From: an uncultured Spirochaetia bacterium
GTDB lineage: Bacteria > Oederibacteriota > PGYV01 > Palsa-1178
Assembly: GCA_964443355.1 (NCBI GenBank)
Contig: CAYUDX010000002.1
Location: 1,227 to 65,226 of the forward strand
Direction of reading: 5' to 3'
DNA length: 64,000 nucleotides
Shown one piece after another: positions 36,382 through 53,412 of this stretch. Position numbers and translations under genes: made by a program. Below the pieces are notes generated by a model. That model was given only the letters and a program-made list of their open reading frames with translations, made no database searches and was not told the origin of the DNA. Each line of letters starts with the position of its first letter. Position 1 is the stretch's first letter.

Positions 36382-36400
36382 TAAAAAATTTAAGATCAGA

Positions 36401-36435: not shown

Positions 36436-36472
36436 GGGAGTTTCATGAATTGAAAATCAGCCGGAGGTTTTT

Positions 36473-37230: not shown

Positions 37231-37248
37231 TGTACGGATGTCCGTACA
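37231..37248. promoter_or_regulatory. Perfect palindrome TGTACGGA-tg-TCCGTACA (candidate GntR/PhnF operator)
   Basis: Lies 35 bp upstream of the GntR gene start at 37283. Confidence 0.45.
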
Positions 37249-37282
37249 AGTCGCGACTAATAATGCTTGGAAAGGACTCTCC

Positions 37283-38008
37283 ATGATAACAAAAGAAAAG
37301 CCGTTGTTTGAGCAGGTGTCGGGCTCGATCCTCACGCAGCTGGAGAAACGGGAATACGGCATAGGTTCCAGGCTGCCGAGCGAGGAAGAGTACCGGAACA
37401 AATACAGGGTAAGCAGGCATACGGTCAGGGAGGCCCTGAGAAAACTTGAAGGCGAAGGCTATATTTACAGGATACAGGGAAAAGGGGCTTTTCTCGCGAA
37501 AAAAAAGGTTTCCTATAATGTTTCCAAAAAGACCCAGTTTTCGCAGTCCGTGCTTGATACAAGCCTTGCCACCAGCTCAAAGCTCATGGGGATATCGGTA
37601 ATATACGCCGACGAGAAGGGTGAACTCATGGAAAAGCTCGAGGTGGGAAAAAAGCAGAAAGTATGGGCCCTTGAGATCCTGAGGTTCATAAACAACGCCC
37701 CTTTTATTTATTCAACCTCCTACCTGCCGGAGAACAGGTTCAGGGGACTGGACAGGCACTTGAACGGAAGGTCGTTCTCCCTGTACAAATTATTGCAGGA
37801 GAATTACGCGGTGAACGGAATAACCAGGACTTCCTCCGTCTTTGAGGTGGGGATACCGGGAAGAGAGGAAATATCGGTCCTGCAGATATCAAAAACGATC
37901 CCGTTGATGATAGTGAAAAGCCGGGCAAAGGATGCTGATGAAACAATGGTTGAATACTGCGTTTCAAGGTTCAGAGGCGACATGGCCAGCCTTAAAGTCG
38001 CATTCTAG
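37283..38008 (+). CDS. phnF: GntR/HutC-family transcriptional regulator (PhnF-like; HTH + UTRA domain)
   Basis: GntR HTH (LPSEEEYRNKYRVSRHTVREALRKLEGEGYI) with a UTRA-like C-terminal domain; heads the phn cluster. Confidence 0.65.
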   Translation: MITKEKPLFEQVSGSILTQLEKREYGIGSRLPSEEEYRNKYRVSRHTVREALRKLEGEGYIYRIQGKGAFLAKKKVSYNVSKKTQFSQSVLDTSLATSSKLMGISVIYADEKGELMEKLEVGKKQKVWALEILRFINNAPFIYSTSYLPENRFRGLDRHLNGRSFSLYKLLQENYAVNGITRTSSVFEVGIPGREEISVLQISKTIPLMIVKSRAKDADETMVEYCVSRFRGDMASLKVAF

Positions 38009-38068
38009 GAGGTGATAAGGCAAGTGCAGGGTCCGGGAATTAAAAAAAATATAAACGGAGGAAACAAG

Positions 38069-38971
38069 ATGAAATTGCTGTTGAAGCTCATGCTCGTTGT
38101 TCTGGCGTTAGGTTTCTCGGTATCAGCCTGTTTCGCGGAAGATGAACTTGTGATGGGGATCATACCGGCGGAAAACCCTGATATGATGGTGAAGCAGTAC
38201 ACCCCGATGGTGGATTGGCTTTCAAAACAGATGGGAAAGAAGATCAAGATAATCACTGCGACGGATTACACCGGAGTTGTCGAGGCAATGAGGGCGAAAA
38301 AAGTCGACATCGCCTGGTTCGGGCCGTTTTCGTATGTGATGGCCAATGAAAGGGCCGGCGCCGAGGCTGTGGCCGTAGGCATTGACAAGAACGGCGTTTC
38401 CACATACCGTTCGTACCTTGTCACAACCCCTGAAACGGCAAAGCTGCTCGGCATAACCAAGATAGAAAAAGGCGAAGAGGGCATGAAGGCCATATTTGAA
38501 AAGCTCCAGCCTTTCAAGAAAAAACTCAGCTTTACGTTCACGGACCCGGCATCAACGTCGGGCTACGCGATCCCGAGGTATTACATGAACCTGGTTGGAT
38601 TCGACCCCAAGGATAATTTTAAATCGGTCGGCTTTGTGGGCACGCATGACGCGGCGGAGCTTGTGGTAAAGAACCAGATCATACAGATGGCTTCGGACAA
38701 CAATATCAATTACGCGAAGATGGAGAAAATGAAACTGATATCCCCGGAAACGAACGTTATAATCTGGGAATCCCCCGAACTGCCCGGCTCACCCCTGGCA
38801 TTAAGGTCGGACCTTCCGCAGAGCGTTAAGGATGATTTCAAAAAGTACATCCAGGAAGTTCCGAAAGATATCGTGACCGGCTACGGCGAGGTGACAGGGT
38901 ACCAGATAGTGACTGACGCCGATTTTAAGGTCATCAAAGACGTAAAAAAAGTAATAGACGCGCTGAAATAA
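38069..38971 (+). CDS. phnD: Phosphonate ABC transporter substrate-binding protein
   Basis: Signal peptide and PhnD family motifs (MGIIPAENPDMM ... IAWFGPFSYV). GGAGG RBS. Confidence 0.8.
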   Translation: MKLLLKLMLVVLALGFSVSACFAEDELVMGIIPAENPDMMVKQYTPMVDWLSKQMGKKIKIITATDYTGVVEAMRAKKVDIAWFGPFSYVMANERAGAEAVAVGIDKNGVSTYRSYLVTTPETAKLLGITKIEKGEEGMKAIFEKLQPFKKKLSFTFTDPASTSGYAIPRYYMNLVGFDPKDNFKSVGFVGTHDAAELVVKNQIIQMASDNNINYAKMEKMKLISPETNVIIWESPELPGSPLALRSDLPQSVKDDFKKYIQEVPKDIVTGYGEVTGYQIVTDADFKVIKDVKKVIDALK

Positions 38972-38979
38972 GGGACAAC

Positions 38980-39735
38980 ATGGTAAAGATAAAATCCTAT
39001 TCAAAAAAGTTCGGGGACCGCGCGGTGCTCTCCGACATAAACATCAGCATCAGGGAGGGTGAGAACACCGTGCTTATCGGCGCCAGCGGCTCGGGCAAGA
39101 CCACGCTGATAAGGAGCATAAACGGCATGGTCGTTCCGGATTCGGGAGAGGTTTATGTCGGCGATGAAAAGATCCAGTTCAAGGATAAGAGAGCGCTCAG
39201 GGAAAAAAGGAAGCATATCGGGATGATATACCAGCATTTTAACCTGGTGGAAAGGACGACCGCTCTCCACAATGTGCTGACAGGCGCCCTTGGCAGGCTT
39301 GACATCGGCATGGACCTGTTCAGGTCCACCCTTGGTTTTTTTGAAAAAAAGGACAAAGAAAAAGCGCGCGAGATGCTGAGTTTTGTCAAGATCGAGTCCA
39401 TGCACGACAGGAGGGTGGACAGGCTCAGCGGCGGAGAAAAGCAAAGGGTTGCGATAGCAAGGGCCATGATGCAGGAACCAAGGGTAATGCTGGCGGACGA
39501 ACCCACGGCGAACCTTGACCCTGAAACATCAAAGAGCATAATAAAACTGCTGCTTAAGGTAAACAAGGAAAAAAAAGTGACGCTTGTGGCGGTGCTCCAT
39601 GACGTGGATACGGCAAGGAAATATTTCGACAGGGTGATCGCGCTGCGGAACGGACGGGTTTATTTTGACGGCAAAACAAGCGACCTGAAAGACAACTGCA
39701 TCAGTGAAATTTACGAAGCGGAAAAGGCAAATTAA
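38980..39735 (+). CDS. phnC: Phosphonate ABC transporter ATP-binding protein
   Basis: Walker A GASGSGKTT, LSGGEKQRV, LADEPTANLD. Confidence 0.8.
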   Translation: MVKIKSYSKKFGDRAVLSDINISIREGENTVLIGASGSGKTTLIRSINGMVVPDSGEVYVGDEKIQFKDKRALREKRKHIGMIYQHFNLVERTTALHNVLTGALGRLDIGMDLFRSTLGFFEKKDKEKAREMLSFVKIESMHDRRVDRLSGGEKQRVAIARAMMQEPRVMLADEPTANLDPETSKSIIKLLLKVNKEKKVTLVAVLHDVDTARKYFDRVIALRNGRVYFDGKTSDLKDNCISEIYEAEKAN

Positions 39736-39739
39736 TCAG

Positions 39740-41296
39740 ATGAACAGCGACAATATCAGGACTATGGGGCCCACGGCTGCGAAGTACGCAGCCTGGGCCC
39801 TGTTTTTACTGGCCTTAACAGGGTCTTTTGTAAGGACGGAATGCAATCCCGCGCATCTTATCGGGGGCATTCCGTGGATATTGTCCCTTGTCAGGGAAAT
39901 GTTCCCCCCTGATTTTTCAAGATGGAGGGAATACCTGCGCCTAACCATGGAAACAGTCGCCATGGGATTGTGGGGGACGCTTTTTGCCCTTATATTATCA
40001 TTTCCAATGTCTTTTTTGGGCGCGGTGAATACTTCGCCAAATAAAGCATTGCAGGCAATCGTAAAGTCATTTTTTACTTTTTTGAGGGCTATCCCGGAGC
40101 TTGTTTACGCCCTGATCTTCGTATTTTCCCTCGGGTTCGGGGTGCTGCCGGGCATACTGACGCTCACATTGGCCTCCACCGGGATGCTTGGGAAATTTTT
40201 TGTGGAAGCCATAGAAAGCGTTGACCCGAAAACGATCGAGGCGGTCCAGGCAACGGGCGGGCATCACGCGGCTGTTTTGAGGCACGCCGTTTTTCCGCAG
40301 GTTTTCCCGCTTTTTATCGGATACGTCCTTTACACCTTTGACCACAACATAAGGACGGCCATGGCCATAGGCATAATCGGCGCGGGCGGCCTCGGCCTGG
40401 AACTGTTCCGCACAATGCAAACCTTCAAGTACCCGCAGGTATTTGCCATCCTGATCATAATGTTCGTAATTGTGACGCTGGTTGACAGGGTCTCGCTGTA
40501 CATGAGGAACAAGGTGATCTCGGGAGACATACTTGAAAAAGGCAACAAGGTCATTTTCACGGCGGCTTCATGGATAGTCGCCGCGGCTTGCGTGTGCCTT
40601 TTGATATACGTGCCCCTTGACCTTGGCCAGATGATAAAAGGCATGCCGTTCCTATTCGATTTTGTGGCAAAAACATTTCCCCCGGACTTTTCGGACATGC
40701 CGAAGTACCTGGGGCTCGTCGTGGATACGCTTGCCATAGGTGTGAGCGGAACGGCGCTAGCCATAATAATTTCAATACCTTTGGGGATACTGGCGTCAAA
40801 AAACTTCGCGCGTTATCCGGTCGTATTCAACATAGCGAAAGAAATAATAAATTTTTGCAGGGCGATAGGGGATGTGGTTTTTGCCCTGATATTTGTCGTC
40901 GCGGTCGGCCTTGGGCCCTTTGCAGGAGTGCTGGCGCTGGGAGTGCATTCGGCCGGTTTGCTGGCAAAATTTTACGCCGAGGCCATAGAAAATATCGATA
41001 CAAAACCGAAAGAAGCCGTTGAAGCGACGGGAGCAAAGACGATCCAGGTCATCAGGCATGCCGTCTTCCCCCAGATCATGCCGCTTTTTAACAGTTACAA
41101 CCTTTACATTCTTGACAGGAATATCAGGACGTCGACCGTCCTGGGACTTGTCGGGGCCGGAGGCATAGGTTTTGAACTGACAATGGGCATAAGGCTGTTC
41201 CAGTACAACAAGGTATTGGCGCTGCTGATAATAGTCATGACCACAATATTCATTGTGGACAAGATATCGGAATATGTAAGAAAAAAAATAGTATAA
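39740..41296 (+). CDS. phnE: Phosphonate ABC transporter permease, fused tandem PhnE-PhnE
   Basis: ~519 aa with two homologous permease halves, each carrying an EAA loop (AVQATGGHHAAVLRHAVFPQ / AVEATGAKTIQVIRHAVFPQ). Confidence 0.75.
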   Translation: MNSDNIRTMGPTAAKYAAWALFLLALTGSFVRTECNPAHLIGGIPWILSLVREMFPPDFSRWREYLRLTMETVAMGLWGTLFALILSFPMSFLGAVNTSPNKALQAIVKSFFTFLRAIPELVYALIFVFSLGFGVLPGILTLTLASTGMLGKFFVEAIESVDPKTIEAVQATGGHHAAVLRHAVFPQVFPLFIGYVLYTFDHNIRTAMAIGIIGAGGLGLELFRTMQTFKYPQVFAILIIMFVIVTLVDRVSLYMRNKVISGDILEKGNKVIFTAASWIVAAACVCLLIYVPLDLGQMIKGMPFLFDFVAKTFPPDFSDMPKYLGLVVDTLAIGVSGTALAIIISIPLGILASKNFARYPVVFNIAKEIINFCRAIGDVVFALIFVVAVGLGPFAGVLALGVHSAGLLAKFYAEAIENIDTKPKEAVEATGAKTIQVIRHAVFPQIMPLFNSYNLYILDRNIRTSTVLGLVGAGGIGFELTMGIRLFQYNKVLALLIIVMTTIFIVDKISEYVRKKIV

Positions 41297-41307
41297 AAGA
41301 GGCCGAC

Positions 41308-41748
41308 ATGGATGAAAAAAAGTTGAATGAACGGATGCGGGAAATTGCCGCCGCCCTTGATGACGGCGCGTTCCTGGCGCTGCATGACGCAGTGATGAAG
41401 ACGGGGGCTGAATTTGTAAAGGGGCCTGAAACAGGGCTATTAATGATGGAACTGAAAGACACGTTTGACACCGGTTTTTATCTGGGCGAGATATTGATTA
41501 CGGAGGCAACGGCTGAATTGGACGGCCGGCAGGGGTATGCGATGGTTATCGGCGACAGCCCCGTGAAAGCCGGGTTATTTGCCGTAGTGGAAGCCATTGA
41601 AAAAGACCCGGATAAATATGCCGCCGTAATTGATGAAACAGAACAAGAGCTTGAAAAACTTGAAAATGCGGCGGGCGGATCCGTCAGAACGGAAAACGCC
41701 TTTATTTCCAGCACAAGGGTGAATTTTGAAAGCATGAGGAAGGGATAA
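41308..41748 (+). CDS. phnG: C-P lyase complex subunit PhnG
   Basis: 146 aa; the C-terminus STRVNFESMRKG parallels the E. coli PhnG tail (ASRVDFFTMVRG). Confidence 0.75.
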   Translation: MDEKKLNERMREIAAALDDGAFLALHDAVMKTGAEFVKGPETGLLMMELKDTFDTGFYLGEILITEATAELDGRQGYAMVIGDSPVKAGLFAVVEAIEKDPDKYAAVIDETEQELEKLENAAGGSVRTENAFISSTRVNFESMRKG

Positions 41749-41751
41749 ACA

Positions 41752-42315
41752 ATGGGAACCCAAATTGAAATTGACAGGAAACAGGAAATTTTCCGGGAAC
41801 TGATGGGAGCAATGGCAAGGCCGGGCAGATTAACCGGGATCACGCCGTCAAAAGTCGGGATCCTTACGGACGTCCTGGATGTTTTACTGGACCATGAGGT
41901 CGTTTTTTGCGTCCTCGGGGAAAATAAAGATCTTTTGGAAAAAAGGATAACCGCCGCGACAGGTTCGATGCCGGCCGGCATAGGCAGCGCTGATTTTGTG
42001 ATTACGGCCGCATGCGATACCGGCGACGAACTGTATAAGGCGAAAAGAGGATCTCTGGAATATCCGGACAATGGGGCGACGGTCATATATTATTCCGCCG
42101 CACCGCAAGGAAATAAAAACAATCAGGATTTTATTTTCAAAGGGCCGGGCATAGCTCCCGGATCCGGCCCCGTATCTCCGGGTATACCGGAAAATGAATT
42201 AAAAAAACTCTCGGAAATAAACTCGGACTATCCTCTCGGCCTGGATGTTGTAATAATATCCGGGAACAGCCTGCTCTGCATCCCCAGGTCATCCAAAATA
42301 ACGGGGGTGAAATAA
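41752..42315 (+). CDS. phnH: C-P lyase complex subunit PhnH
   Basis: 187 aa; N-terminal pattern F..LM.AM.RPG and position in the cluster. Confidence 0.7.
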   Translation: MGTQIEIDRKQEIFRELMGAMARPGRLTGITPSKVGILTDVLDVLLDHEVVFCVLGENKDLLEKRITAATGSMPAGIGSADFVITAACDTGDELYKAKRGSLEYPDNGATVIYYSAAPQGNKNNQDFIFKGPGIAPGSGPVSPGIPENELKKLSEINSDYPLGLDVVIISGNSLLCIPRSSKITGVK

Positions 42316-43400
42316 TGGGATATATAGCGGTAAAAGGAGGCAAAGACGCCATTGAAAACGCGGAAAAATACCTGGAGTTCCAGAGGTTAAAAGGGGCTTC
42401 CGACGACCTGTCCATCGGACAGATAAAAGACCAGCTGTACTTCGCTGTGGACAGGATCATGAGCGAAGGTTCTTTATACGCGCCGGAGCTGGCCGCGCTC
42501 GCCTTTAAACAGGCCGCGGGGGACACACTTGAGGCGTCGTTCATATTGAGGGCATACAGGACGACCAAGCCCCGGGTGGGCTATTCACTGCCCTGCAACA
42601 CGCAAAAAATGAAAGTTATACGGAGAATATCGGCCGCGTTCAAGGATATACCGGGAGGGCAGATACTGGGCCCGACGTCCGATTATACCCTGAAGCTGCT
42701 GGATTTCGGGCTTGAAGAGGCGGACAATGAAAAAAGAAAGGCGGAACTGGAAAAATTATTGGGCGATATCGTCAATTACAAAGATTATGAAGACATAGGC
42801 GAATTGCCCAGGGTCATTGATATGCTGAGGAAGGAAGGCCTGGTCATAGAGAACAAACGGGCAAAGGAAGGTGAAATATTTGATATTACGAGGGAATCAA
42901 ATGTTTTTCCGGCATCAAGGAGCGCTTCATTGCAGACGATGGCCAGGGGCGAAACAGGCGGCCTGCTGCTTTTGGCTTATTCGAACGTCCGGGGTTACGG
43001 GGACATTCACCCCGCGCTCGGGGAACTGAGGGTGGGGTACGTGCCGGTCATGATAACCCATCCCTTGACCGGGGAGCCTTATGAAATTGGGAAGGTGAAA
43101 ATTACCGAGGCCGAGATAATCGCGCGTTTCAATGTCGAGGGGGAAAAGCCGAAATTCTCCCTCGGGTACGGGGTCTGTTTCGGCCATAACGAAGTAAAAG
43201 CCATATCAATGGCCATACTGGACAGGGCCATGGCGGCAAGCGGGGCAAAACACGCGTCAAACGACCAGGAATTTGTCCTGTCGCATGTCGACGGCATCGA
43301 ATCCATGGGTTTTACCATTCACTGGAAGCTGCCTCATTACGTCACCTTCCTGTCGGACCTTGACCGTTTGAGAAAGGCGCAGGAGGTATCCAAAAAATGA
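42315..43400 (+). CDS. phnI: C-P lyase complex subunit PhnI
   Basis: MGYIAVKGGKDAIENAEKYLE parallels the E. coli N-terminus MYVAVKGGEKAI; 361 aa. Confidence 0.85.
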   Translation: MGYIAVKGGKDAIENAEKYLEFQRLKGASDDLSIGQIKDQLYFAVDRIMSEGSLYAPELAALAFKQAAGDTLEASFILRAYRTTKPRVGYSLPCNTQKMKVIRRISAAFKDIPGGQILGPTSDYTLKLLDFGLEEADNEKRKAELEKLLGDIVNYKDYEDIGELPRVIDMLRKEGLVIENKRAKEGEIFDITRESNVFPASRSASLQTMARGETGGLLLLAYSNVRGYGDIHPALGELRVGYVPVMITHPLTGEPYEIGKVKITEAEIIARFNVEGEKPKFSLGYGVCFGHNEVKAISMAILDRAMAASGAKHASNDQEFVLSHVDGIESMGFTIHWKLPHYVTFLSDLDRLRKAQEVSKK

Positions 43401-44269
43401 ACAACGCGTCTGAAAAAATCGAAGGAAATAACAAGTACAATTTTGCGTTCCTGGATGAGAACGCCAAGAAAGAGATACGCAGGAGGATACTAAAGGCCAT
43501 TGCCATTCCCGGATACCAGGTGCCGTTCGGATCGCGTGAGCTTCCGATAGCGCGCGGATGGGGAACGGGCGGGCTGCAGATAACCCTCTCCATAATAGGC
43601 AGGAACGATATTTTAAAGGTCATCGACCAGGGATGCGACGACAGCGTGAACGCCGTCAACATCAGGAGGTTCATTAAAAGCGTCACGGGGGTTGAAATGA
43701 CGACCGACACGGAAAAGGCGACGCTTGTGCAGACAAGGCACAGGATACCGGAGAAGCCGCTGACAAAAGACCAGATAATTATTTTTCAGGTGCCTTTTCC
43801 CGAGCCTTTGAGGACAGTGGAGCCCTCCGAGGCGGAAACGAGGAGGATGCACGCCGAAGCCGATTACAGCAGGATGTGGCTTTATCTTTATGAGGACATC
43901 GTGAAATGCGGGGAAATAAGCATAGGCGCCAGGTACCCCGTTTTTGTGAACAACCGGTATATCATGGACCCGAGCCCGATACCCAGGTGGGATATTGAAA
44001 AACTGAATAATTCGGAATGCCTCAACCTTTTTTGCGCGGGCAGGGAAAAAAGGATCTACGCCATACCCCCTTATACGGCCGTTAAGCCTCTCGAGTTCGA
44101 GGATTTCAGGTTCAGGACCGAGGATTTTAAGGGGAAAAAATGCGAAAAATGCGGCAGCGCGGATTCTTACCTGGATGAAACGATCGACGATTCCGACGGC
44201 ACCAGGCATTATTATTGCTCGGACGCGGATTACTGTGAAAAAAACTCGGACAACGCGGTGAAAAAATGA
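43397..44269 (+). CDS. phnJ: C-P lyase catalytic subunit PhnJ (radical SAM, [4Fe-4S] C-terminal Cys cluster)
   Basis: AIPGYQVPFGSRELPIARGWGTGG plus the C-terminal C-x2-C-x21-C-x5-C cluster. Confidence 0.9.
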   Translation: MNNASEKIEGNNKYNFAFLDENAKKEIRRRILKAIAIPGYQVPFGSRELPIARGWGTGGLQITLSIIGRNDILKVIDQGCDDSVNAVNIRRFIKSVTGVEMTTDTEKATLVQTRHRIPEKPLTKDQIIIFQVPFPEPLRTVEPSEAETRRMHAEADYSRMWLYLYEDIVKCGEISIGARYPVFVNNRYIMDPSPIPRWDIEKLNNSECLNLFCAGREKRIYAIPPYTAVKPLEFEDFRFRTEDFKGKKCEKCGSADSYLDETIDDSDGTRHYYCSDADYCEKNSDNAVKK

Positions 44270-45144
44270 TCAAAAAACCCGTCCTGAAAGCCAGGCATAT
44301 CACAAAAATATTCGGGAAAGGCTGCCCGACGTGCCTGGATGACGACTCGAGTTTTGAGGGCAACATTTGCCCGGACTGCAATTCCGTGGTCGGGTGCAAA
44401 AATATTTCCTTTGACCTGTATCCCAATGAAGTGCTTGGAATAGTGGGAGAGAGCGGCTCGGGAAAATCAACGCTGGTCAGGATGCTTTACCTCGATATCG
44501 AACCCACCAAAGGGGAGATGTTCCTTGAGTTTGACGGGGACGGCGCGGAGCCGGAAGGATATTCAGGACTGCCGCCGCAGGCCGTCGGATGCGATATTTT
44601 TGGCGCCAGATCATTCGTTAAAAGGCATATAAAGAACTTTTTTTTCGGCATGGTGTACCAGTCCGCGCAGCTGGGGCTGAAGCTTGACGTTACGGCCGGC
44701 GGGAATATTGTGGAACGCATGCTTATGGCCAACGGTAGGGACATCAAAAAAATGAGGGCCAGGGCCTCGTACCTCCTGGGTAAAACGGAGATCCCGGTCG
44801 AGAGGATGGACGAACCGCCGAAAAATTTCAGCGGCGGCATGCAGCAGAGGGTGCAGATAGCAAAGGCCATTTCCAACGAACCGGCGATACTGCTGCTCGA
44901 TGAGGTTACCACGGGGCTTGACGTGTCGGTCCAGGCAAAGGTCCTTGACTTGATCCGCAAGCTGCAGAACGAGATCAAGGTGTCCATGCTTGTGGTATCG
45001 CACGACCTCGGGGTCATAAGGCTTTTGACGAACAGGACCATAGTTATGAAGGACGGAAGGATTATAGAGTCGGGACTTACGGACCAGATACTGGAAGATC
45101 CGCAGGAAGAATACACGCAGATACTTGTTAATTCCGCGTTATAA
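44266..45144 (+). CDS. phnK: C-P lyase-associated ATPase PhnK (with an N-terminal Cys4 insertion)
   Basis: VLGIVGESGSGKSTL ... FSGGMQQRVQIAKA ... C-terminal EDPQEEYTQILVNSAL. Extra insertion CPTCLDDDSSFEGNICPDCNSVVGC. Confidence 0.85.
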   Translation: MIKKPVLKARHITKIFGKGCPTCLDDDSSFEGNICPDCNSVVGCKNISFDLYPNEVLGIVGESGSGKSTLVRMLYLDIEPTKGEMFLEFDGDGAEPEGYSGLPPQAVGCDIFGARSFVKRHIKNFFFGMVYQSAQLGLKLDVTAGGNIVERMLMANGRDIKKMRARASYLLGKTEIPVERMDEPPKNFSGGMQQRVQIAKAISNEPAILLLDEVTTGLDVSVQAKVLDLIRKLQNEIKVSMLVVSHDLGVIRLLTNRTIVMKDGRIIESGLTDQILEDPQEEYTQILVNSAL

Positions 45145-45158
45145 GGACGGGAGAAAAA

Positions 45159-45842
45159 ATGATAAAGATAAGCGGATTGTCAAAGACGTTCAGGATGCAC
45201 ATTTTGAAAGGTAAAATAATAGAAGGGTTTAAGGACGTCTCTTTTTCCGTAAAGCCGGGACAGGCGCTGGGCATTAAGGGGAAAAGCGGCAAGGGCAAGA
45301 GCTCGGTCTTGAAGTGCGTGTACAGGACATATATACCCGGCAGCGGAAGCATTATGTACGCGTCGGGAAGTTACGGCGACATGGACCTCGCGTGCGCCAG
45401 CGAGCATGAGGTTATTTCAGTAAGGAAATCGGAGATAAGCTTCATAACGCAGTTCCTGCACATAATCCCGAGGGTATCGGCCCTCGATGTGGTGGCGGAG
45501 CCGCTTGTCGCCTCCGGGGCCGGTGCGGCCGAAGCCAGGGAAAAAGCGGCCGCTCTTTTGTCCGAACTGGGAATACCGGAAGGGCTATTTGACGCGTTCC
45601 CGTCCACTTTCAGCGGCGGAGAGAAACAAAGGATAAACATAGCCCGCTCCATAATAAAAGCTCCGAGGCTGCTTTTGATGGACGAACCCACCGCGTCGCT
45701 TGACAAAAAATCCACGGTGACGGTGGTTGAACTGCTCAAAGGCCTCAAGAAAAAAGGTACGACAATGATCGGGGCCTTCCACGACATGTGGGTGATGGAC
45801 CAAATATCGGACTCGATATATGAAATGGACGGTGGGCAATGA
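45159..45842 (+). CDS. phnL: C-P lyase-associated ATPase PhnL
   Basis: ABC ATPase without a permease partner (GKSGKGKSS ... FSGGEKQRINIARS ... [11 protein letters not shown]); 227 aa. Confidence 0.8.
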   Translation: MIKISGLSKTFRMHILKGKIIEGFKDVSFSVKPGQALGIKGKSGKGKSSVLKCVYRTYIPGSGSIMYASGSYGDMDLACASEHEVISVRKSEISFITQFLHIIPRVSALDVVAEPLVASGAGAAEAREKAAALLSELGIPEGLFDAFPSTFSGGEKQRINIARSIIKAPRLLLMDEPTASLDKKSTVTVVELLKGLKKKGTTMIGAFHDMWVMDQISDSIYEMDGGQ

Positions 45843-46999
45843 AAAAATCAATGCTTATAAAGAACGCGCGCGTGGTGACCCCGCACGGGATCATTGAGAA
45901 CGGCGGCGTGCTCGTTGAGAACGGCAGGATAACGGCGGTAGGGCCGCATATGGCTGAAAACGGAGGGGATGTTTTTGACGCTTCAAACCGGTGCCTTCTC
46001 CCGGGTTTCGTCGACCTGCACTGCGACTGCATAGAAAAAGAGATCGAGCAAAGGCCTGAAAGTTATTTCCCGCCGAATATCTCGATACTTGAAACGGACA
46101 AAAAAGCCGTGTCTTCGGGTATAACCACCACTTTTTATTCCCTGTCGTTTTCCGGGTCTGAAATAGGCCTGAGGTCGAACGCAAAGGCAAAGGAGATAGT
46201 GCATGAAATAATGCGCTTAAAAAGCCGCCTTATCGCGGATTCGAGGATACACGCGCGTTTTGAGATAACGGCAACCGAAGCCGTGCCCCTGCTTACCGAG
46301 CTCATTACCGAGGGGGCAATTGACCTGTTTTCAATCATGGACCACACCCCGGGACAGGGCCAGTTCAAGGATGAAAGGGCCTATAAGAATTATTACGGCA
46401 AGACATATAAAAAGGACGACAGCTCCATGGAGCAGACCATAAAGGAAAAAAGGGAGCGGAAAAAGACGGAGGCGCCGGGGAATATTGAAAAGATGATAGC
46501 ATTGTGCAGGATGAAGAACATCACAATAGCCTCTCACGACGACGATTCCGAGGAAAAAATAATGTTCCTGAAGGAAAAAAACATACCCATATGCGAGTTC
46601 CCGGTGAACATTGATACGGCAAAAAAAGCGCGCGCTGAAGGCTTGAACGTGGTCCTGGGCGCGCCGAATATAATAAAGGGCGGGTCCCACTCGAATAATT
46701 TAAGCGCCTTGGACGCCATAAGGGACGGCTACTCGAGCATCATATGCTCGGATTATATGGCCACTTCAATGCTGTACGCGGTCTTCAAACTGGTTTCCAT
46801 GAAAATACTCGGCCTCCACAGCGCCGTGAACATGATCAGCTTAAACCCGGCAAACGCGGTGAACCTCGGGGAGAGCAAGGGTTCGCTTGAGGCCGGAAAA
46901 GACGCGGACATTATACTGGTGGACGACAGTTTCGAGGTGCCTGTCATAGAGAAAGTCTTCATAAAAGGAGCCGAGGTTTATCACAGGTGCAGGCCGTGA
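45839..46999 (+). CDS. phnM: Amidohydrolase-family PhnM (ribose 1-methylphosphonate 5-triphosphate diphosphatase)
   Basis: Amidohydrolase motifs (LLPGFVDLHCDCIE ... SHDDD ... ICSDY); 386 aa, directly after phnL. Confidence 0.8.
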   Translation: MKKSMLIKNARVVTPHGIIENGGVLVENGRITAVGPHMAENGGDVFDASNRCLLPGFVDLHCDCIEKEIEQRPESYFPPNISILETDKKAVSSGITTTFYSLSFSGSEIGLRSNAKAKEIVHEIMRLKSRLIADSRIHARFEITATEAVPLLTELITEGAIDLFSIMDHTPGQGQFKDERAYKNYYGKTYKKDDSSMEQTIKEKRERKKTEAPGNIEKMIALCRMKNITIASHDDDSEEKIMFLKEKNIPICEFPVNIDTAKKARAEGLNVVLGAPNIIKGGSHSNNLSALDAIRDGYSSIICSDYMATSMLYAVFKLVSMKILGLHSAVNMISLNPANAVNLGESKGSLEAGKDADIILVDDSFEVPVIEKVFIKGAEVYHRCRP

Positions 47000-47715
47000 A
47001 GATCGGGCTGATATCCGACATACACGGCAATTACGCCGCTTTGAAAACGGTGATAAGGGAATTAAAGGCCGCAGGCGCGGATGCAGTTTTGAACGCGGGA
47101 GATAATGTGGGCTATTCTTCCGGCCATGAAGAGTGCATCAAACTGCTTGTTGATGAGAGCGTATCCGGCTGCATGGGCAATTATGACGAGGCCGTGGCTT
47201 TTGACAGGCCGGTATGCGGCTGCGGCGAAAGCGATGATAAAGCGCTCATAAAAATGCGCGCGGCATCCCTTAAATGGGCCCGTGAGAACGCCTCGCCGGA
47301 GGCGAATAAGTTCCTGTCGCTTCTGCCACGGAAACTGGAATTGAACCCTGGCAACATAAGTATACTGGCTGTGCACGGAGGCCTTGACGTTATTAACGAT
47401 ATGATCGGGGAAAATGATGACGCAAAAATGGGGGAGATGGCCTCCAAAACAAACGCCGACGTAATTGTTATGGGGCACACCCACATCCCTTTTTCCAGGA
47501 AGGCCGGCGGCAAATTGTTCGTAAATCCCGGCTCCGTCGGCAGGCCCGTAGACGGCGATCCGAGGGCGTCATACGCCATACTGACCGTAAGCAACGGCTT
47601 AAACATAGAACTGCGCAGGACGGTGTATGACGTTGAATCCAACATCAGCGACCTGGTATCGGCGGGCCTTCCGGCTGAAATAGGGGCCGCTTTAAGGTGC
47701 GGGAGGGAGATATAA
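46987..47715 (+). CDS. Metallophosphoesterase (YfcE/MJ0936-like phosphodiesterase) at the 3' end of the phn cluster
   Basis: LISDIHGN, AGDNVGY, GNYD, VMGHTHIPF. Overlaps the phnM stop. Confidence 0.7.
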   Translation: MQAVKIGLISDIHGNYAALKTVIRELKAAGADAVLNAGDNVGYSSGHEECIKLLVDESVSGCMGNYDEAVAFDRPVCGCGESDDKALIKMRAASLKWARENASPEANKFLSLLPRKLELNPGNISILAVHGGLDVINDMIGENDDAKMGEMASKTNADVIVMGHTHIPFSRKAGGKLFVNPGSVGRPVDGDPRASYAILTVSNGLNIELRRTVYDVESNISDLVSAGLPAEIGAALRCGREI

Positions 47716-48665
47716 TGAAAAGGATAGGGTACAGGATCGACGACCAGAAAATAGACGGCAGCCTGAATAATCTTACGGGAGAGCTTGATTCCCTGAAAGG
47801 ACTTGGTTTGCGGTGCGTTGAACTGCCCGTGCACGGGCTGGATGTGATAAAGAACTGTGAAATTGACGGTAAAGCCTTAAAAGGAGTCGCGGATATCCTT
47901 GGCCGGTACGATTTTGAGTACAGCGTGCACTGCGCCGATTCAATGGACCTTATGGATGAGGGGAATTTCCATGATAATCTGAAGGTTTTTTCCTCCTCCC
48001 TGGAATTCTGTTCGCATATAAAATCCGGCGTATTTGTTTATCATCCCGGAAGGTTCATACCCGAGGGGGAGTTCCACTTTAAAGACAGGATAGCGCCCGA
48101 TGAGGCGCGCAGGCAGGAACTTTTGGCCATGGAGGCGTCATGCATCAAAGATCTGGCCGACAAATATCCGGGAGTCAGGATATGCATGGAAAATGCCAGG
48201 CCCTATAAGGACATGGCGCGTTACTGCTATGCGGAGGAAATGGACCGGCTTGTCAAACAGGTCGAAACAATCAGGCGGGTCAATGTCGGTATAACCCTTG
48301 ACACCGGACACCTGAACCTGTCGGCAGGGTATTATAATTTTGACATAATGAAGGCGGTGGACACGGCGAAAAAATATATTTTCCACGTCCATCTGCACGA
48401 TAATTTCGGCAAGGTGTGTTATTATCACGAGAAAAAGCAGACGCATCTTATCCCGCTGGGAAAAGGCGACTGCCATATGCCCATAGGGAGTGGAAACGCT
48501 CCAATAAAGGCCGTTATTAACTGCCTTGGCGCGGAGTATGAGGGTATATATGTATTAGAATACAGGGGCAGGTATAAGGAGTTCTTAAAGGGATCTGTTG
48601 AAAAACTCATGCATTTCTTGTCCGATACGGAACAAAAGGAGACTGGAAATGGCAAAAACATATAA
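47715..48665 (+). CDS. Sugar-phosphate isomerase/epimerase (xylose-isomerase-like TIM barrel family)
   Basis: TIM-barrel AP-endonuclease-2 family pattern (VELPVHGLD ... CMENARP ... ITLDTGHLNLS ... HVHLHDN). TAATG overlap with the upstream gene. Confidence 0.6.
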   Translation: MKRIGYRIDDQKIDGSLNNLTGELDSLKGLGLRCVELPVHGLDVIKNCEIDGKALKGVADILGRYDFEYSVHCADSMDLMDEGNFHDNLKVFSSSLEFCSHIKSGVFVYHPGRFIPEGEFHFKDRIAPDEARRQELLAMEASCIKDLADKYPGVRICMENARPYKDMARYCYAEEMDRLVKQVETIRRVNVGITLDTGHLNLSAGYYNFDIMKAVDTAKKYIFHVHLHDNFGKVCYYHEKKQTHLIPLGKGDCHMPIGSGNAPIKAVINCLGAEYEGIYVLEYRGRYKEFLKGSVEKLMHFLSDTEQKETGNGKNI

Positions 48666-49716
48666 CATCGCGGTAATGGGCGGGGATGGTACCGGACCGG
48701 AAGTCCTGGCTGAAGGAATGAAAGTCCTGAAGGCGGCCGCGGAGAAACATACGGTGCGACTTCATTTCGTGGATTACGACCTCGGCGGCGAAAGATACAT
48801 GAAGACGGGGGATCTTGTGCCGGATTCATGCATGGAAGAATTTAAAAAGGCTGATGCGATATATTTCGGAGCCATCGGGCATCCCGACGTAAAACCCGGG
48901 ATACTTGAAATGGGGATACTTTTTAAGCTGCGTTTTGTCCTGGACCAGTATATTAATTTAAGGCCCGTAAAGCTTTACCCAAATGTGGAAACACCGCTGA
49001 AGGATAAAGGGCCCGAGGACATTGATTTTGTCGTGATCAGGGAAAATTCCGGCGGCATATATACGGGAATGGGCGGCGCGGTAAAAAAAGGCACTGCGAA
49101 CGAGATCGCGACGCAGGTTATGGCATATTCGCGCTTCGAGGTGGACAGGTGCGTTAAGTACGCGTATGAACTTACAAGAAAGCGCGACAGGAAGAACATG
49201 CTGACCCTTGTGCATAAGAGCAACGTGCTTACGCACACCGGCGATCTGTGGGTAAGGGCGCACAGGGAAATGGGGGACAGGGATTTCAAGGATATTAAAC
49301 AGGATTACGCACACGTGGATGCGGCCGCAATGTGGTTCTTGAAAAACCCGGAATTTTTTGACGTTATAGTGACTGAAAACCTGTTCGGCGATATCATAAC
49401 CGACATCGGGGCCATGATACAGGGCGGTAAGGGGATAGCCGCGGGCGGCAACATCAATCCCGAAGGCGTATCGATGTTCGAGCCTATCGGAGGCTCCGCC
49501 CCGAAATACACCGGTAAGAACGTGATAAATCCGCTTGCGGCAATAAACGCGGCGGCGATGATGCTCGACACGCTGGGAGAGGCCAAAGCGGCCATGGCGA
49601 TCGACAATGCGGTGACCGACGCGTTGAAGTCCGGAAAGATAAAATCAATGTCCGCCGGCAAGATGGGAATGGGAACAAGGGAGCTCGGTGATTATGTGGC
49701 ATCACTTGTAAAATAA
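48649..49716 (+). CDS. Isocitrate/3-isopropylmalate dehydrogenase-family oxidoreductase (LeuB/tartrate-DH-like)
   Basis: YNIAVMGGDGTGPEV N-terminus and the GSAPKYTGKNVINPLA motif. AAAGGAG RBS; 17-nt overlap with the upstream gene. Confidence 0.7.
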   Translation: MAKTYNIAVMGGDGTGPEVLAEGMKVLKAAAEKHTVRLHFVDYDLGGERYMKTGDLVPDSCMEEFKKADAIYFGAIGHPDVKPGILEMGILFKLRFVLDQYINLRPVKLYPNVETPLKDKGPEDIDFVVIRENSGGIYTGMGGAVKKGTANEIATQVMAYSRFEVDRCVKYAYELTRKRDRKNMLTLVHKSNVLTHTGDLWVRAHREMGDRDFKDIKQDYAHVDAAAMWFLKNPEFFDVIVTENLFGDIITDIGAMIQGGKGIAAGGNINPEGVSMFEPIGGSAPKYTGKNVINPLAAINAAAMMLDTLGEAKAAMAIDNAVTDALKSGKIKSMSAGKMGMGTRELGDYVASLVK

Positions 49717-49747
49717 ACAGGAATAAGCAAAACCTGTATGCGCCGCT

Positions 49748-49777
49748 TGACAAATCCGCCAAATCCCATATAATCAT
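49748..49777 (+). promoter_or_regulatory. Strong sigma70-like promoter TTGACA-17-TATAAT
   Basis: cTTGACAaatccgccaaatcccaTATAATcat. Confidence 0.6.
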
Positions 49778-49802: not shown

Positions 49803-49970
49803 ATGGATTTCTGGCTCCGGTTAAGGAACGCTTTTTTAAAGCTGCTCATAAAATTTGACAACGGTTTTCTTTGCGATACCTGCAGGTACAACCATCCAAG
49901 CGACTGCCTTCGGCCTGAAAGACCGAACGCGAAGGAATGCAAAGAGTACAGGCATAAATAAATTAAAAAT
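49803..49970 (+). CDS. Unannotated small Cys-rich protein (55 aa; C-x2-C ... C ... C, putative zinc ribbon)
   Basis: Below the ORF-track size cut-off. AAGGTGA RBS, the ATG 26 bp after the -10, and translation MDFWLRLRNAFLKLLIKFDNGFLCDTCRYNHPSDCLRPERPNAKECKEYRHK. Confidence 0.45.
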
Positions 49971-50077: not shown

Positions 50078-50368
50078 ATGCCCACATATAATTATGAATG
50101 CGCCCACTGCGGCCTATTCGAAGCCGAACATTCCATAAAACTGGACGCTTATAAGATCTGCCCGAAATGCGGGGGCAAGGACATTAAACGCCTCATAGGG
50201 AACAATACCGCTTTTATCCTCAAGGGCGGCGGATTTTATGAGACGGATTATAAACGCGGCTCCGGCAGCGACTACGCCTCCAAGAAAGCCGCGGACAGCG
50301 CTGCGCCCGCACCTGCTGCGCCCTGCGCCGGCTGCGACAAGGCAAAATCAGGGGAATGCAAACCATAG
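50078..50368 (+). CDS. FmdB-family zinc-ribbon protein
   Basis: MPTYNYECAHCGLFE ... ICPKCGG classic FmdB N-terminus, with a second CxxC near the C-terminus. Confidence 0.7.
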   Translation: MPTYNYECAHCGLFEAEHSIKLDAYKICPKCGGKDIKRLIGNNTAFILKGGGFYETDYKRGSGSDYASKKAADSAAPAPAAPCAGCDKAKSGECKP

Positions 50369-50613: not shown

Positions 50614-51039
50614 ATGAAACGAACGGCAGGATTATGGATCGACCACCGGAAGGCTTTCATCGTGACTTTGACCGACAACGGGGCGGAAACGCTCCAGATA
50701 TTGTCGGGGGTGGACAAACAACGCGGGCGAATGGACGGGGTACGCCTGAATGAAAAGTTCGAGTCGCATAAAGTGGCGGCAGACGACAGGCAGCAGCGGG
50801 ATTATGCGGGGCACATGGACGCTTTTTACAGGAACGTTATGGATAAAATAAAAGGTTCGGGTTCGATACTTCTGATGGGCCCGGGCGAGGCAAAAGGCGA
50901 ATTCAAAAAGTTCATGGACAGGCACGGGAGCGAAAACACCGTGGTGATGGTCGAGGCCGACGACAAAATGACCGACCCGCAGATAGTGGCCAAAACGCGC
51001 GAATATTTTCTGGAGAAAGACACAAAACTAGGGGACTGA
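50614..51039 (+). CDS. Hypothetical protein (possibly host-attachment/eRF1-like family)
   Basis: AAAGGAGGG RBS. N-terminus WIDHRKAFIV resembles the Host_attach-family start; weak. Confidence 0.45.
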   Translation: MKRTAGLWIDHRKAFIVTLTDNGAETLQILSGVDKQRGRMDGVRLNEKFESHKVAADDRQQRDYAGHMDAFYRNVMDKIKGSGSILLMGPGEAKGEFKKFMDRHGSENTVVMVEADDKMTDPQIVAKTREYFLEKDTKLGD

Positions 51040-51051
51040 CAGGGGAAAAAA

Positions 51052-53412
51052 ATGCTTTCCAGGATCAACTCGTTTCCGGAACAATTAAGGCGCATATTCA
51101 ACCCTGATGAGTGGATGATCAGGCTTTTAAGGCTTTCGGTCATAAAGGAACGTTCCACGCTTCCCGGAGCCGTAATAATACAGATCGACGGCCTGAGCCA
51201 TACGGAGTTCAACCGCGCCCTGCACAGGGGTGAGATGCCCAGGCTGGCCCGGCTTTTGAAAAAAGAGGGTTATACGCAGAGGGTCCATTACAGCGGCCTG
51301 CCCTCATGCACACCGGCGGTACAGGGGAACCTTTTTTACGGGGTGAAAAGCTGCGTGCCGGCGTTCAGTTTCAGGGACAAAAAGACGGGGAAAGTCTTCA
51401 ACATGTTCATCCCCCGGGACTCGGCCGAAATAGAAAAACGCCTGAAAAGAAAAGGGGAGCCCCTGCTGAAGAACGGCAGCTCATACGGGAATATTTTTAC
51501 CGGAGGCGCCCAGGAAGCGCATTTCTGCGTTTCGGCCATCGGCTGGGGGACGCTGCTTAGCGCGGCGAACCCGTTCGCCATAATAATATTCATCGCTATG
51601 CACCTTCTGGTCATCATACGCGCGGCCCTGCTGACGGTCCTCGAGTTCATCCTGGCGCTCTTTGATTCCATACGCGGGTTTATAGAAGGCAAGGACCTCT
51701 TTGCCGAGATCAAATACATCCCGTTTCGGGTCATTGCCTGCGTTATCATAAGGGAAGTTGTCGGCATAGGCGCAAAAATAGACATTACCCGAGGTCTTCC
51801 CGTAATACACATAAACCTTGCCGGTTATGACGAGCAATCACACCACCGCGGGCCGGGGTCCGGGTTCGCCCACTGGTCCCTCAGGGCCATTGACAGCGTG
51901 ATAGGCGGTATATGGAAGGCCACCAAAAGATCGATCCGCCGCGAGTATGACCTTTTTATTTATTCCGACCACGGGCAGGAAGAGACGAGCGATTATGAAA
52001 AACTGCACGGCAGGCACGTCCAGGCGGCCGTGAACGGGATAATGAAGGAAGTAATAAAGCATGACAATCTTCGCATGGAATCACTGTCGGGCAACCACAG
52101 CTGGCGTGCAGGTCTGATGCGCTATAGACCGCCCGTTGAAACCGCCCCCGAACAGGAAAAGAAAGACAAGGCGAACGAAGCCGTCATAACGGCCCTGGGG
52201 CCGGTGGGGTTCATATATCCCGCAAAAAAACTTTCCATGGCGCAAAAACAAAACGTAGCAAGGGCCCTTGTTAAAAAAGCCTGCATTCCAATAGTCGTCG
52301 TATCCAATTCGGCCAATACAGCATCCGCCTGGAACAGCGAAGGGAAATTCCTGCTTCCGCGCGACGCATCTAAGGTGCTCGGAGGCGACCACCCGTTCCT
52401 GAAACAGGCGGCGGAGGACCTTGTGGGATTAAGCCGCCACAAGGACGCCGGGGAAATAATGATCCTGGGTTATAAACCCGTGGGAAAGTCCGTCACATTT
52501 TACGCGGAGCGCGGCAGCCACGCGGGACCGGGAGCCCATGAAACAGCGGGTTTTGCGTTGATACCCCCGGGGGTAAAGACCGATGAGAATAAGATATTCA
52601 GGACCGGGGACCTGCGCGATGCTGTCTTAAGCGTACTGAAAAGGGAGGACAAGGCGGGCCCGGGCGTTGAAAAAAATCCGGACGGCCGTGCCAGCCTTAA
52701 AATAATGAGCTATAACATACACGCGTGCAAGGGAAGGGACGGCAAAGTTCGGCCCGACAGGATCGCGGAAGTGATTGCGTCGCACGCCCCGGATATCGTG
52801 GCGCTTCAGGAAGTGGATTCCCGGGAAAACATGCACCAGGCGAAGATAATAGCCGGACTGCTCTCCATGAACTTTTATTACCATTCGAGCGTCCTGCTCA
52901 AGACCGGCATGCACGGCAACGCGATATTAAGCCGTTACGGCATGAAACTGAAAAAAGAGGGGGCCCTGCCGAGCCTTCTAAATACTCGCTTGCTTGAAAA
53001 ACGAGGCGCTCTCTGGGTGGAGATCAACGCCAACGGGAAAAAGATACAGGTCATAAACACCCACCTGAGCCTTTTCCCGAGGGAGAGGATGATCCAGGTA
53101 AAGGAACTGCTGGGGCCGGGATGGCTGGGAAATCCCGGATGCAAAGGCGCCGTCATAATATGCGGCGATTTTAATTCGACGCTCAATTCGCGGGTGTGCA
53201 GGGCCCTGGGCAAAAAATTCCACAGCATACACTTCCACGCAAAGGGGTTCAGCCACCTGAAGACCTTCCCGAGCTTTTTCCCGCTGGGGCTCGTCGACCA
53301 TATCTTCCTCGGCGGCGGGATAAAAGCAGTAAAGATCGAGACGCCGAAAACGCGCATGGAACGCAGGGCATCGGACCATCTCCCCCTTATATCGGAGGTA
53401 AAGATCCCGTGA
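51052..53412 (+). CDS. Large fusion protein: alkaline-phosphatase-like (type I phosphodiesterase/nucleotide pyrophosphatase) core + TM segment + endonuclease/exonuclease/phosphatase (EEP) domain
   Basis: AlkP-core motifs (VIIQIDGLSH ... SDHGQE). C-terminal EEP motifs (IMSYNIHAC, ALQEV, NTHLS, CGDFNS, SDHLPL). Confidence 0.65.
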   Translation: MLSRINSFPEQLRRIFNPDEWMIRLLRLSVIKERSTLPGAVIIQIDGLSHTEFNRALHRGEMPRLARLLKKEGYTQRVHYSGLPSCTPAVQGNLFYGVKSCVPAFSFRDKKTGKVFNMFIPRDSAEIEKRLKRKGEPLLKNGSSYGNIFTGGAQEAHFCVSAIGWGTLLSAANPFAIIIFIAMHLLVIIRAALLTVLEFILALFDSIRGFIEGKDLFAEIKYIPFRVIACVIIREVVGIGAKIDITRGLPVIHINLAGYDEQSHHRGPGSGFAHWSLRAIDSVIGGIWKATKRSIRREYDLFIYSDHGQEETSDYEKLHGRHVQAAVNGIMKEVIKHDNLRMESLSGNHSWRAGLMRYRPPVETAPEQEKKDKANEAVITALGPVGFIYPAKKLSMAQKQNVARALVKKACIPIVVVSNSANTASAWNSEGKFLLPRDASKVLGGDHPFLKQAAEDLVGLSRHKDAGEIMILGYKPVGKSVTFYAERGSHAGPGAHETAGFALIPPGVKTDENKIFRTGDLRDAVLSVLKREDKAGPGVEKNPDGRASLKIMSYNIHACKGRDGKVRPDRIAEVIASHAPDIVALQEVDSRENMHQAKIIAGLLSMNFYYHSSVLLKTGMHGNAILSRYGMKLKKEGALPSLLNTRLLEKRGALWVEINANGKKIQVINTHLSLFPRERMIQVKELLGPGWLGNPGCKGAVIICGDFNSTLNSRVCRALGKKFHSIHFHAKGFSHLKTFPSFFPLGLVDHIFLGGGIKAVKIETPKTRMERRASDHLPLISEVKIP

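Follow-up and report, generated by a model that had tools for sequence, protein, structure and literature searches.

Carbon-phosphorus (C-P) lyase is the main microbial route to phosphorus from phosphonates, and it releases methane from methylphosphonate. The PhnJ component of this pathway yields 5-phosphoribosyl 1,2-cyclic phosphate (PRcP). To our knowledge, the last steps have been biochemically defined only for E. coli, where PhnP and PhnN carry them out, and for one enzyme of the PHP family. PhnP, the 2H-family 'rcsF'/DUF1045 proteins and PhnPP are named in the literature as PRcP-processing enzymes. Here we analyse a C-P lyase operon in a 64,000-nucleotide stretch of DNA (the window) from an uncultured Spirochaetia bacterium, which covers positions 1227-65226 of contig C2 in a draft genome (G000) of 2.88 Mb and 98.6% completeness. 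We hold, with moderate confidence, that this operon is an example of a widespread, anaerobe-type C-P lyase operon in which a non-homologous TIM-barrel protein, with or without a metallophosphoesterase (MPP), would replace PhnP and PhnN, and in which a third gene, here called leuB', is an inserted copy outside the conserved pathway.

The phnF-like gene, phnD, phnC, a fused double phnE and phnGHIJKLM occupy positions 37175-46999 of the + strand, with neighbouring genes of the operon overlapping by up to 32 nt or standing up to 14 nt apart. Profile matches reveal that the seven C-P lyase core genes phnGHIJKLM are complete and contiguous. Our gene calls and reading of the junctions agree with the original prediction, made from the letters of the window, that these eleven phn genes are followed at this place and on the same strand by three overlapping tail genes. 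The 3' end of the operon consists of the following genes.

45839-46999, + strand: phnM, ribose 1-methylphosphonate 5-triphosphate diphosphatase (NF011990, 415.9 bits, cut-off 233)
46996-47715, + strand: MPP, a YfcE/SapH-like metallophosphoesterase of a Pho-associated subfamily (PF12850, 96.5 bits; TIGR00040, 70.2 bits)
47715-48665, + strand: the TIM barrel, an endonuclease-IV-like AP_endonuc_2 protein (PF01261, 89.5 bits, gathering threshold 31.1)
48649-49716, + strand: leuB', a phn-linked 3-isopropylmalate dehydrogenase paralog (PF00180, 307.6 bits; NF002898, 474.7 bits, LeuB equivalog cut-off 393)

The MPP gene starts with GTG at 46996, 9 nt downstream of the start at 46987 given earlier, and its GTGA overlaps the phnM stop codon (46997-46999). 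The TIM-barrel gene starts with ATG at 47715, shares a TAATG with the stop codon of the MPP gene and is preceded by GGGAGGGAG, while the ATG of leuB' at 48649 is preceded by GGAG and lies 17 nt within the 3' end of the TIM-barrel gene.

Neither of the finishing enzymes known from E. coli was detected in the genome. The best match to the PhnN model (TIGR02322) reaches 36 bits with a cut-off of 156 bits, and the best match to the PhnP model (TIGR03307) reaches 102-103 bits with a cut-off of 272 bits, in agreement with the earlier suggestion that phnN and phnP are missing. The best PhnP-model match is a generic metallo-beta-lactamase (MBL) hydrolase encoded on contig C21, outside the phn locus, and neither the MPP nor the TIM barrel has the metallo-beta-lactamase fold. 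PhnP and PhnN are likewise above cut-off in none of 40 other phn-bearing genomes that encode the TIM barrel, and the E. coli control passed both searches. A search for the DUF1045/2H-phosphoesterase family (PF06299) gave no match in the genome, and the control genomes gave none either. The stand-alone PHP protein encoded at 1468-2277, which the original prediction had also pointed out, passes the HisJ-family histidinol-phosphatase model TIGR01856 (104 bits, cut-off 90) and has no link to the phn genes; nothing found here makes it a PhnPP candidate.

The TIM barrel belongs to a small family, with 46 matches in a 90%-clustered protein collection. A pattern scan of species-representative genomes yielded 491 confirmed relatives, of which the best 80 loci were examined. 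At 55 of the 80, the end of phnM lies at most 300 nt upstream of the TIM-barrel gene on the same strand, and the stop and start codons of the two genes usually overlap; at another 13, phnM has a different place within the 10-kb flank. Thermodesulfobacteriota, Nitrospirota, Desulfuromonadales, Syntrophales and the archaeal Methanocella are among the hosts. In Caldanaerovirga acetigignens the operon reads phnF-G-H-I-J-K-L-M-TIM and contains no further extra hydrolase. Since the TIM barrel stands next to phnM at 55 of the 80 loci and an MPP homolog is found at just 4 of them, it is the TIM barrel that is the general, widely conserved partner of the C-P lyase genes.

Among 61 relatives of the genome, which are not independent of each other so that the counts are descriptive only, PhnJ is found in five, the TIM barrel in five and both in four. 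The exceptions are one genome (G052) with PhnJ and no TIM-family match, and one (G050) with a TIM-family match and no PhnJ match. Further extra genes are present in some phn operons of the TIM/MPP type (L042, 6469-8936; L046, 12905-14149; L048, 10150-10839), namely a second amidohydrolase, an enolase-superfamily gene, hexapeptide transferases and a PHP-family gene. The latter lies right after the TIM-barrel gene in L048, and is thus present besides it.

Because both the MPP and the TIM barrel are conserved phn companions well beyond the lineage of this genome, replacement of the finishing steps by non-orthologous enzymes, as the original prediction had proposed, is the best reading of a locus from which phnN and phnP are absent. 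The tail of MPP and TIM barrel, in which the TIM barrel is the predicted key enzyme, is probably a widespread and hitherto undescribed way of finishing the C-P lyase pathway. A literature search covering sources outside subscription journals found no paper in which phn operons are connected with a TIM barrel of the AP_endonuc_2 family or with an MPP of the YfcE type.

The original prediction distributed the roles in the tail differently. In that scheme the MPP opens the cyclic phosphate in place of PhnP, the TIM barrel acts as isomerase or epimerase of a sugar phosphate, and the dehydrogenase oxidises the ribose-phosphate product, which amounts to a new carbon route. That the three genes overlap in one orientation behind phnM speaks for such a scheme, as does the general knowledge that MPPs include known cyclic phosphodiesterases. 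The public annotation of the TIM family, 'sugar phosphate isomerase/epimerase', and the presence of ketose and xylulose-5-phosphate epimerases near the top of its structural neighbours (Foldseek) are also in its favour. Each of the three assignments can be examined against the features of the protein concerned.

Endonuclease IV binds its three metals through His, His, Glu, Asp, His, His, Asp, His and Glu, whereas sugar isomerases and epimerases of the same fold use Glu-Asp-His-Glu alone, in a single or double metal site. The AlphaFold2 (AF2) model of the TIM protein is a confident eight-strand barrel with a predicted local distance difference test (pLDDT) score of 93.7. Across 28 homologs, down to 31% identity, residues H72, H110, E159, D196, H199, H228, D252, H254 and E282 are invariant, as are H226 and D229. 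A profile search of the PDB returned MJ1311 (3wqo) at 3e-24 followed by endonuclease IV chains, with alignment of the HAP, HPG, LDxGH and HxHDN motifs, and the conserved residues align with the HxxY, HPG, LDTxH, HxND and DRH motifs of endonuclease IV. Comparison with the profile of the genome's own nfo places H72, H110, D196/H199, H228 and D252/H254 on the nfo motifs. In total, seven of the nine ligands are aligned to endonuclease IV motifs, and E159 and E282 are placed by motif and spacing only. As judged from the alignments, the site matches the nine-ligand, three-metal set of endonuclease IV and not the four-ligand isomerase site. The conservation of nine endonuclease-IV-type metal ligands runs counter to the earlier assignment of the TIM barrel as an isomerase; the five extra His/Asp ligands, typical of endonuclease IV, speak against membership of the sugar isomerase/epimerase branch of PF01261.

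Two other identities were considered for the TIM barrel. It gives no match to the endonuclease IV model TIGR00587 at E <=0.001 (family cut-off 129.65 bits), and it is not the DNA-repair enzyme because a housekeeping nfo is encoded separately, on contig C33 (277 bits). As a CbiR it scores 33.5 bits with NF041277, for which the cut-off is 105. Because its ligand set is of the endonuclease IV type instead of the isomerase type, the TIM barrel is probably a hydrolase that opens the cyclic ribose-phosphate product PRcP. CbiR, a member of AP_endonuc_2, hydrolyses a small-molecule ribosyl phosphodiester of cobamides (PMC7733943). According to PMC11656708, which cites Ghodge et al. 2013, PhnPP (Elen0235) of Eggerthella lenta, from the PHP family, cleaves both ester bonds of the cyclic phosphodiester, and the typical metal centre of the PHP family is trinuclear. 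These two precedents make the role of a small-molecule phosphoesterase reasonable for the TIM barrel.

With TIGR00040, the model of the YfcE subfamily, the MPP scores above the cut-off (56.25 bits), and its nearest solved relatives are 3rqz, 3qfm and 1su1 (YfcE). In the subfamily alignment the D-x-H, GD, GNYD, HGG and GHTH motifs are invariant, together with a Cys-Gly-Cys (CGC) insert, and a C-terminal AGLP segment is conserved. The order phnM-MPP-TIM is kept in the related loci L044, L137 and L138 and in genome G007, with the MPP 60-70% identical. Homologs of about 50% identity are present between phnK and phnL in L043, L046, L047 and L048, which comprise metagenomic contigs attributed to Nitrospirae and other contigs, with L046 from Methanocella. 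Here the TIM barrel follows phnM in L043, L047 and L048, whereas the record of L046 ends before the TIM gene could appear. The pairing of MPP and TIM barrel is kept while the gene order shifts. In the same-genus genome G002, a 65-aa open reading frame (ORF) without a family match (L034, 12060-12257) is situated between phnM and the TIM gene, in the place of the MPP; it was rejected as an MPP remnant, since it gives no Pfam or tblastn signal.

Of the four MPP-bearing loci among the 80, three belong to the 55 with the TIM gene directly after phnM, so that 52 of these 55 operons have no MPP homolog in the flank. Therefore, the MPP cannot be a general substitute for PhnP, as had been suggested. 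Every complete MPP-bearing operon sampled also carries the TIM barrel, and because the TIM barrel is the general partner, the MPP is best described as a rarer, auxiliary companion which adds to it and does not replace it. Our best guess is a phosphomonoesterase or diesterase acting on a ribose bisphosphate intermediate.

Taken together, the following sequence of steps can be proposed. PhnGHIJKLM would convert the phosphonate, with PRcP formed by PhnJ, and the TIM barrel, translationally coupled 3' of phnM, would hydrolyse PRcP. Like the three-metal enzyme PhnPP, it may cut the two ester bonds one after the other, so that ribose 5-phosphate and inorganic phosphate would be formed with no need for PhnN. 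The part of the MPP is a weaker inference; it could be an auxiliary enzyme that, for example, removes the 1- or 2-phosphate from a ribose bisphosphate intermediate, or it could be a more general phosphoesterase of the Pho regulon.

The third tail gene has a different history. The genome contains a complete ilvD-ilvB-ilvN-ilvC-leuA-leuC-leuD-leuB-asd operon on contig C35 with the housekeeping leuB, so leuB' is not the sole leuB of the genome. The two copies are 90% identical in amino acids and 83% in nucleotides, and the DNA homology to the leu operon spans 48635-49717, i.e. leuB' and 14 nt with the ribosome-binding site. In the closest related operon (L136), where the TIM barrel is 82% identical, 63 bp are found in the place of 1138 bp of the window. 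Two features delimit this region.

48608-49745, + strand: 1.14-kb insertion carrying leuB' and its ribosome-binding site; in blastn, the match to L136 breaks off at 48607 and sets in again at 49746
49747-49774, + strand: sigma-70-type promoter, TTGACA-16-TATAAT, with 12 of 12 consensus matches, directly 3' of the leuB' stop codon

leuB' is not present in L136, L137, L044, G002 or any of the 80 distant TIM loci. G007 and L138 do carry it, but there the TIM gene comes to its stop 11 nt upstream of leuB', and an ancient coupling of the two genes through their overlap was rejected on this ground. As read from the window, the stop codon of the TIM gene has been lost here and the 17-nt overlap is secondary. 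This loss appends about 12 residues to the TIM protein, read from inserted leuB DNA and modelled with low confidence. In our tree the two phn-linked copies, from G000 and G007, group together with 100% support within the genus-level leuB clade, as sister to the leuB of G002. leuB' probably comes from this genus-level radiation and was inserted, with its own ribosome-binding site, between the TIM gene and the next promoter. It is a lineage-specific insertion of a leuB paralog and not part of the conserved pathway.

All three proteins speak against the scheme with the MPP as PhnP substitute. Its dehydrogenase passes the LeuB equivalog model, is 90% identical to the leu-operon copy and is carried on an insertion missing from the closest relative, and isopropylmalate-dehydrogenase chemistry requires a 3-substituted malate, not a sugar phosphate. 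With the missing MPP in most phnM-TIM operons and the hydrolase-type ligands of the TIM family added, we regard the scheme as a whole as very improbable; a role of leuB' in re-routing the pathway product is unlikely in itself. Most likely, leuB' retains oxidative decarboxylation of the isopropylmalate dehydrogenase type. Conservation of the tail with the phn genes, a point raised in the original prediction, holds for the MPP and the TIM barrel, which are conserved beyond the lineage, and does not hold for leuB'. It had also been allowed that the dehydrogenase could simply be leuB and that phnN and phnP could lie elsewhere in the genome; the former is what we find, a non-conserved leuB paralog with a leu-operon counterpart, while the latter is not borne out and the other two tail genes are conserved.

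leuB' has no convincing promoter of its own and is situated upstream of the promoter at 49747, and for these reasons it is probably expressed with the phn operon. By its position and sequence, this promoter marks the end of the phn unit and the start of the next one. Synonymous divergence between G000 and G007 is 0.44-0.9 from phnD to phnM, about 1.7-1.9 in the MPP gene and over the 5' half of the TIM gene, but only 0.22 in leuB'. This mosaic pattern suggests recombination, or that the operon's leuB' end was exchanged separately. In leuB', a housekeeping gene of biosynthesis has been captured at the end of an operon for phosphate starvation, where selection has maintained it.

Several findings weigh against the interpretation developed above. 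The generic MBL hydrolase is distantly PhnP-like and could process PRcP, and such a hydrolase is encoded in 10 of the 40 other genomes as well (two further genomes of the 40 have only weaker, partial MBL matches). The hhalign comparison of the TIM family with the genome's own nfo is weak (13% probability, partial) and mis-registers the equivalent of E145, and because of this the assignment of E159 rests on motif and spacing. Foldseek against the PDB, after 3wqo, ranks ketose 3-epimerases and endonuclease IV alike and does not separate hydrolase from epimerase. No phnM is seen in the flank at 12 of the 80 TIM loci, 4 of which end at a contig edge. A 38%-identical MPP in Desulforudis audaxviator (L135) is part of a pst operon, between the pst permease genes and the gene of the phosphate-binding protein, with no phn genes nearby. 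As for leuB', it has been kept long enough that synonymous sites are saturated (dS >=1) relative to every leu-operon copy, and it shares with the other phn-linked copy the substitutions T88M and L92F, next to the substrate-recognition loop, and M261K, in a post-catalytic loop.

Since the Desulforudis member sits among pst genes, the wider MPP family appears tied to phosphate acquisition generally, and this subfamily may serve phosphate scavenging as such. It is conceivable, then, that the MPP and the TIM barrel are both general scavengers of organophosphates under phosphate starvation, co-located with the phn genes by shared Pho regulation, and that a housekeeping enzyme elsewhere processes PRcP. 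The phosphate-related genes on both sides of the operon (pstCAB-phoU upstream, a 786-aa phosphodiesterase protein downstream; see below) fit this explanation, as do the MPP relative in the pst operon, the 12 TIM loci without phnM nearby and the PhnP-like MBL hydrolase. We nevertheless consider it unlikely, because the TIM gene abuts phnM in 55 of the 80 genomes, across bacterial phyla and an archaeon, the MPP gene can lie within the core gene set, with phnK on one side and phnL on the other, the TIM barrel goes with PhnJ in four of five cases among the 61 relatives, and PhnP and PhnN are absent from all 40 genomes tested.

A similar question arises for leuB', which could have acquired a new phosphonate-linked function, e.g. 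the oxidative decarboxylation of a phosphonate-bearing 3-substituted malate, and would then be a true third member of the tail. Homologs of isocitrate and isopropylmalate dehydrogenases act on phosphonomethylmalate in FR-900098 biosynthesis. The ratio of nonsynonymous to synonymous substitution (dN/dS) of leuB' is 0.02-0.05 relative to the leu-operon copies and 0.115 when the two phn-linked genes are compared with each other, and because the ratio is low while synonymous sites are saturated, leuB' is judged to be old and under purifying selection. It has been retained in this way at the phn 3' end in at least two lineages (G000; G007/L138), and amino-acid change on the stem of the phn-linked clade is faster (0.045) than on its sister (about 0). 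The substitutions found in both phn-linked copies are L73F, T88M, L92F, T226A, T227A, M261K and K316M, and the Glu-x-Gly-Ile-Leu loop flanked by T88M and L92F is the one that forms the isopropyl-group pocket in isopropylmalate dehydrogenase structures. However, leuB' is confined to a few closely related operons, absent from L136 and from all 80 distant loci, it still scores above the LeuB equivalog cut-off, and several of the shared, seemingly diagnostic residues are also natural to LeuB proteins other than these or to tartrate dehydrogenases. We therefore judge a new function of leuB' to be distinctly unlikely, and retain the reading of an inserted leuB copy outside the conserved pathway.

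Many anaerobes, among them sulfate reducers, Nitrospirota, syntrophs and the methanogen Methanocella, are without all of the known finishing enzymes. Should the missing hydrolase be the TIM barrel, alone or together with the MPP, a gap would be closed in reconstructions of the pathway for sediments, peat and groundwater, a widespread mis-annotation as 'sugar phosphate isomerase' would be corrected, and the endonuclease IV fold would gain a small-molecule activity. A bolder version can be offered only tentatively: the TIM barrel may be an undescribed fourth family of PRcP-processing enzymes, after PhnP, 2H/DUF1045 and PhnPP, that provides a hydrolytic closure of the pathway in hundreds of anaerobic species of bacteria and archaea, with a dedicated CGC-motif MPP assisting in a subset of them and with leuB', in this lineage, recruited into the operon and diverging towards a new substrate.

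The remaining part of the operon and its surroundings contain the following features.

32673-35926, + strand: pstC, pstA, pstB and phoU (Pfam BPD_transp_1 twice, ABC_tran, PhoU)
35953-36898, + strand: two tandem low-molecular-weight phosphatase/ArsC-like genes (LMWPc twice), directly upstream of phnF
37175-38008, + strand: phnF-like GntR/UTRA regulator (TIGR02325, 133.7 bits, under the cut-off of 156.8)
38012-41296, + strand: phnD, phnC and fused phnE-phnE, a phosphonate ABC transporter (TIGR03431, 254.7 bits; TIGR02315, 283.6 bits; TIGR01097, 539 bits in two stretches)
41308-45842, + strand: phnG, phnH, phnI, phnJ, phnK and phnL, C-P lyase core and ATPases (TIGR03293, TIGR03292, TIGR02323, TIGR02324)
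49803-49961, + strand: 52-aa Cys-rich ORF, the first in the unit after the promoter at 49747-49774
50078-50368, + strand: FmdB-type zinc-ribbon gene, after the Cys-rich ORF

PhnE is a protein of 530 aa with a double PhnE domain, PhnJ matches PF06007 with 483 bits, and phnI matches genes called PF05861 in related loci. The order of the core phn genes is orthologous in G002 and G007. The presence of pstCAB-phoU and of two low-molecular-weight phosphatase-like genes upstream of phnF makes the phn operon part of a larger phosphate-acquisition island. The pair of Cys-rich ORF and FmdB gene is also found 3' of the phn operon in L136, L137, L138 and G007. Further downstream, positions 50614-53412 of the window encode a 141-aa protein without a family match and then the 786-aa protein, in which a type I phosphodiesterase/nucleotide pyrophosphatase domain is joined to an endonuclease/exonuclease/phosphatase (EEP) domain. 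Another place on this contig (G000:C2:79891-80320) holds a DNA copy of the 141-aa gene with 68% identity.

Comparison with the known systems places the locus as follows. PhnP and PhnN of E. coli, an MBL-fold phosphoribosyl cyclic phosphodiesterase and a ribose 1,5-bisphosphate kinase, occupy the same pathway slot, in which the phosphorus of PRcP is brought back to metabolism, and their genes are likewise located at the 3' end of phn operons. They have no sequence or fold kinship with the MPP or the TIM barrel, and their route makes 5-phosphoribosyl 1-diphosphate (PRPP), whereas a hydrolytic route would release phosphate. The MPP passes the subfamily model of the YfcE/SapH (Spr1479)-type enzymes. 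However, these usually have GNHD or GNCD where the phn/pst-linked subfamily has GNYD, and this subfamily is further set apart by its CGC insert and AGLP segment. leuB' is above the cut-off of the actinobacterial-type LeuB model NF002898, as expected from its identity to the genome's own LeuB. The usual context of LeuB is leuA, leuC and leuD, while leuB' instead follows a phosphonate operon, and the dN/dS of the two phn-linked copies against each other exceeds that relative to the leu-operon copies about five-fold.

For the TIM barrel, endonuclease IV (Nfo) has in common with it the superfamily PF01261 and the nine metal-ligand positions, at about 15% identity, and differs in acting in DNA repair and not in a phosphonate catabolism context. 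The closest solved structure is MJ1311 of Methanocaldococcus jannaschii (PDB 3wqo, E 3e-24, TM 0.8), deposited as 'D-tagatose 3-epimerase-like protein'. It has the HAP, HPG, EN, DxGH and HxHDN motifs in common with the TIM barrel at about 21% identity, but is without the insertion that carries the conserved QTHLIP...GKGD segment of the TIM family, and is not in a phn context. CbiR provides a member of the superfamily able to cleave a small-molecule ribosyl phosphodiester, with a substrate and genomic context unlike those of the TIM barrel. PhnPP/Elen0235 has the PHP fold and not that of AP_endonuc_2, and the sole PHP protein in the window is of the HisJ type. As a non-orthologous replacement of PhnP drawn from a three-metal family, PhnPP nevertheless offers the best functional analogy for the role proposed here for the TIM barrel.

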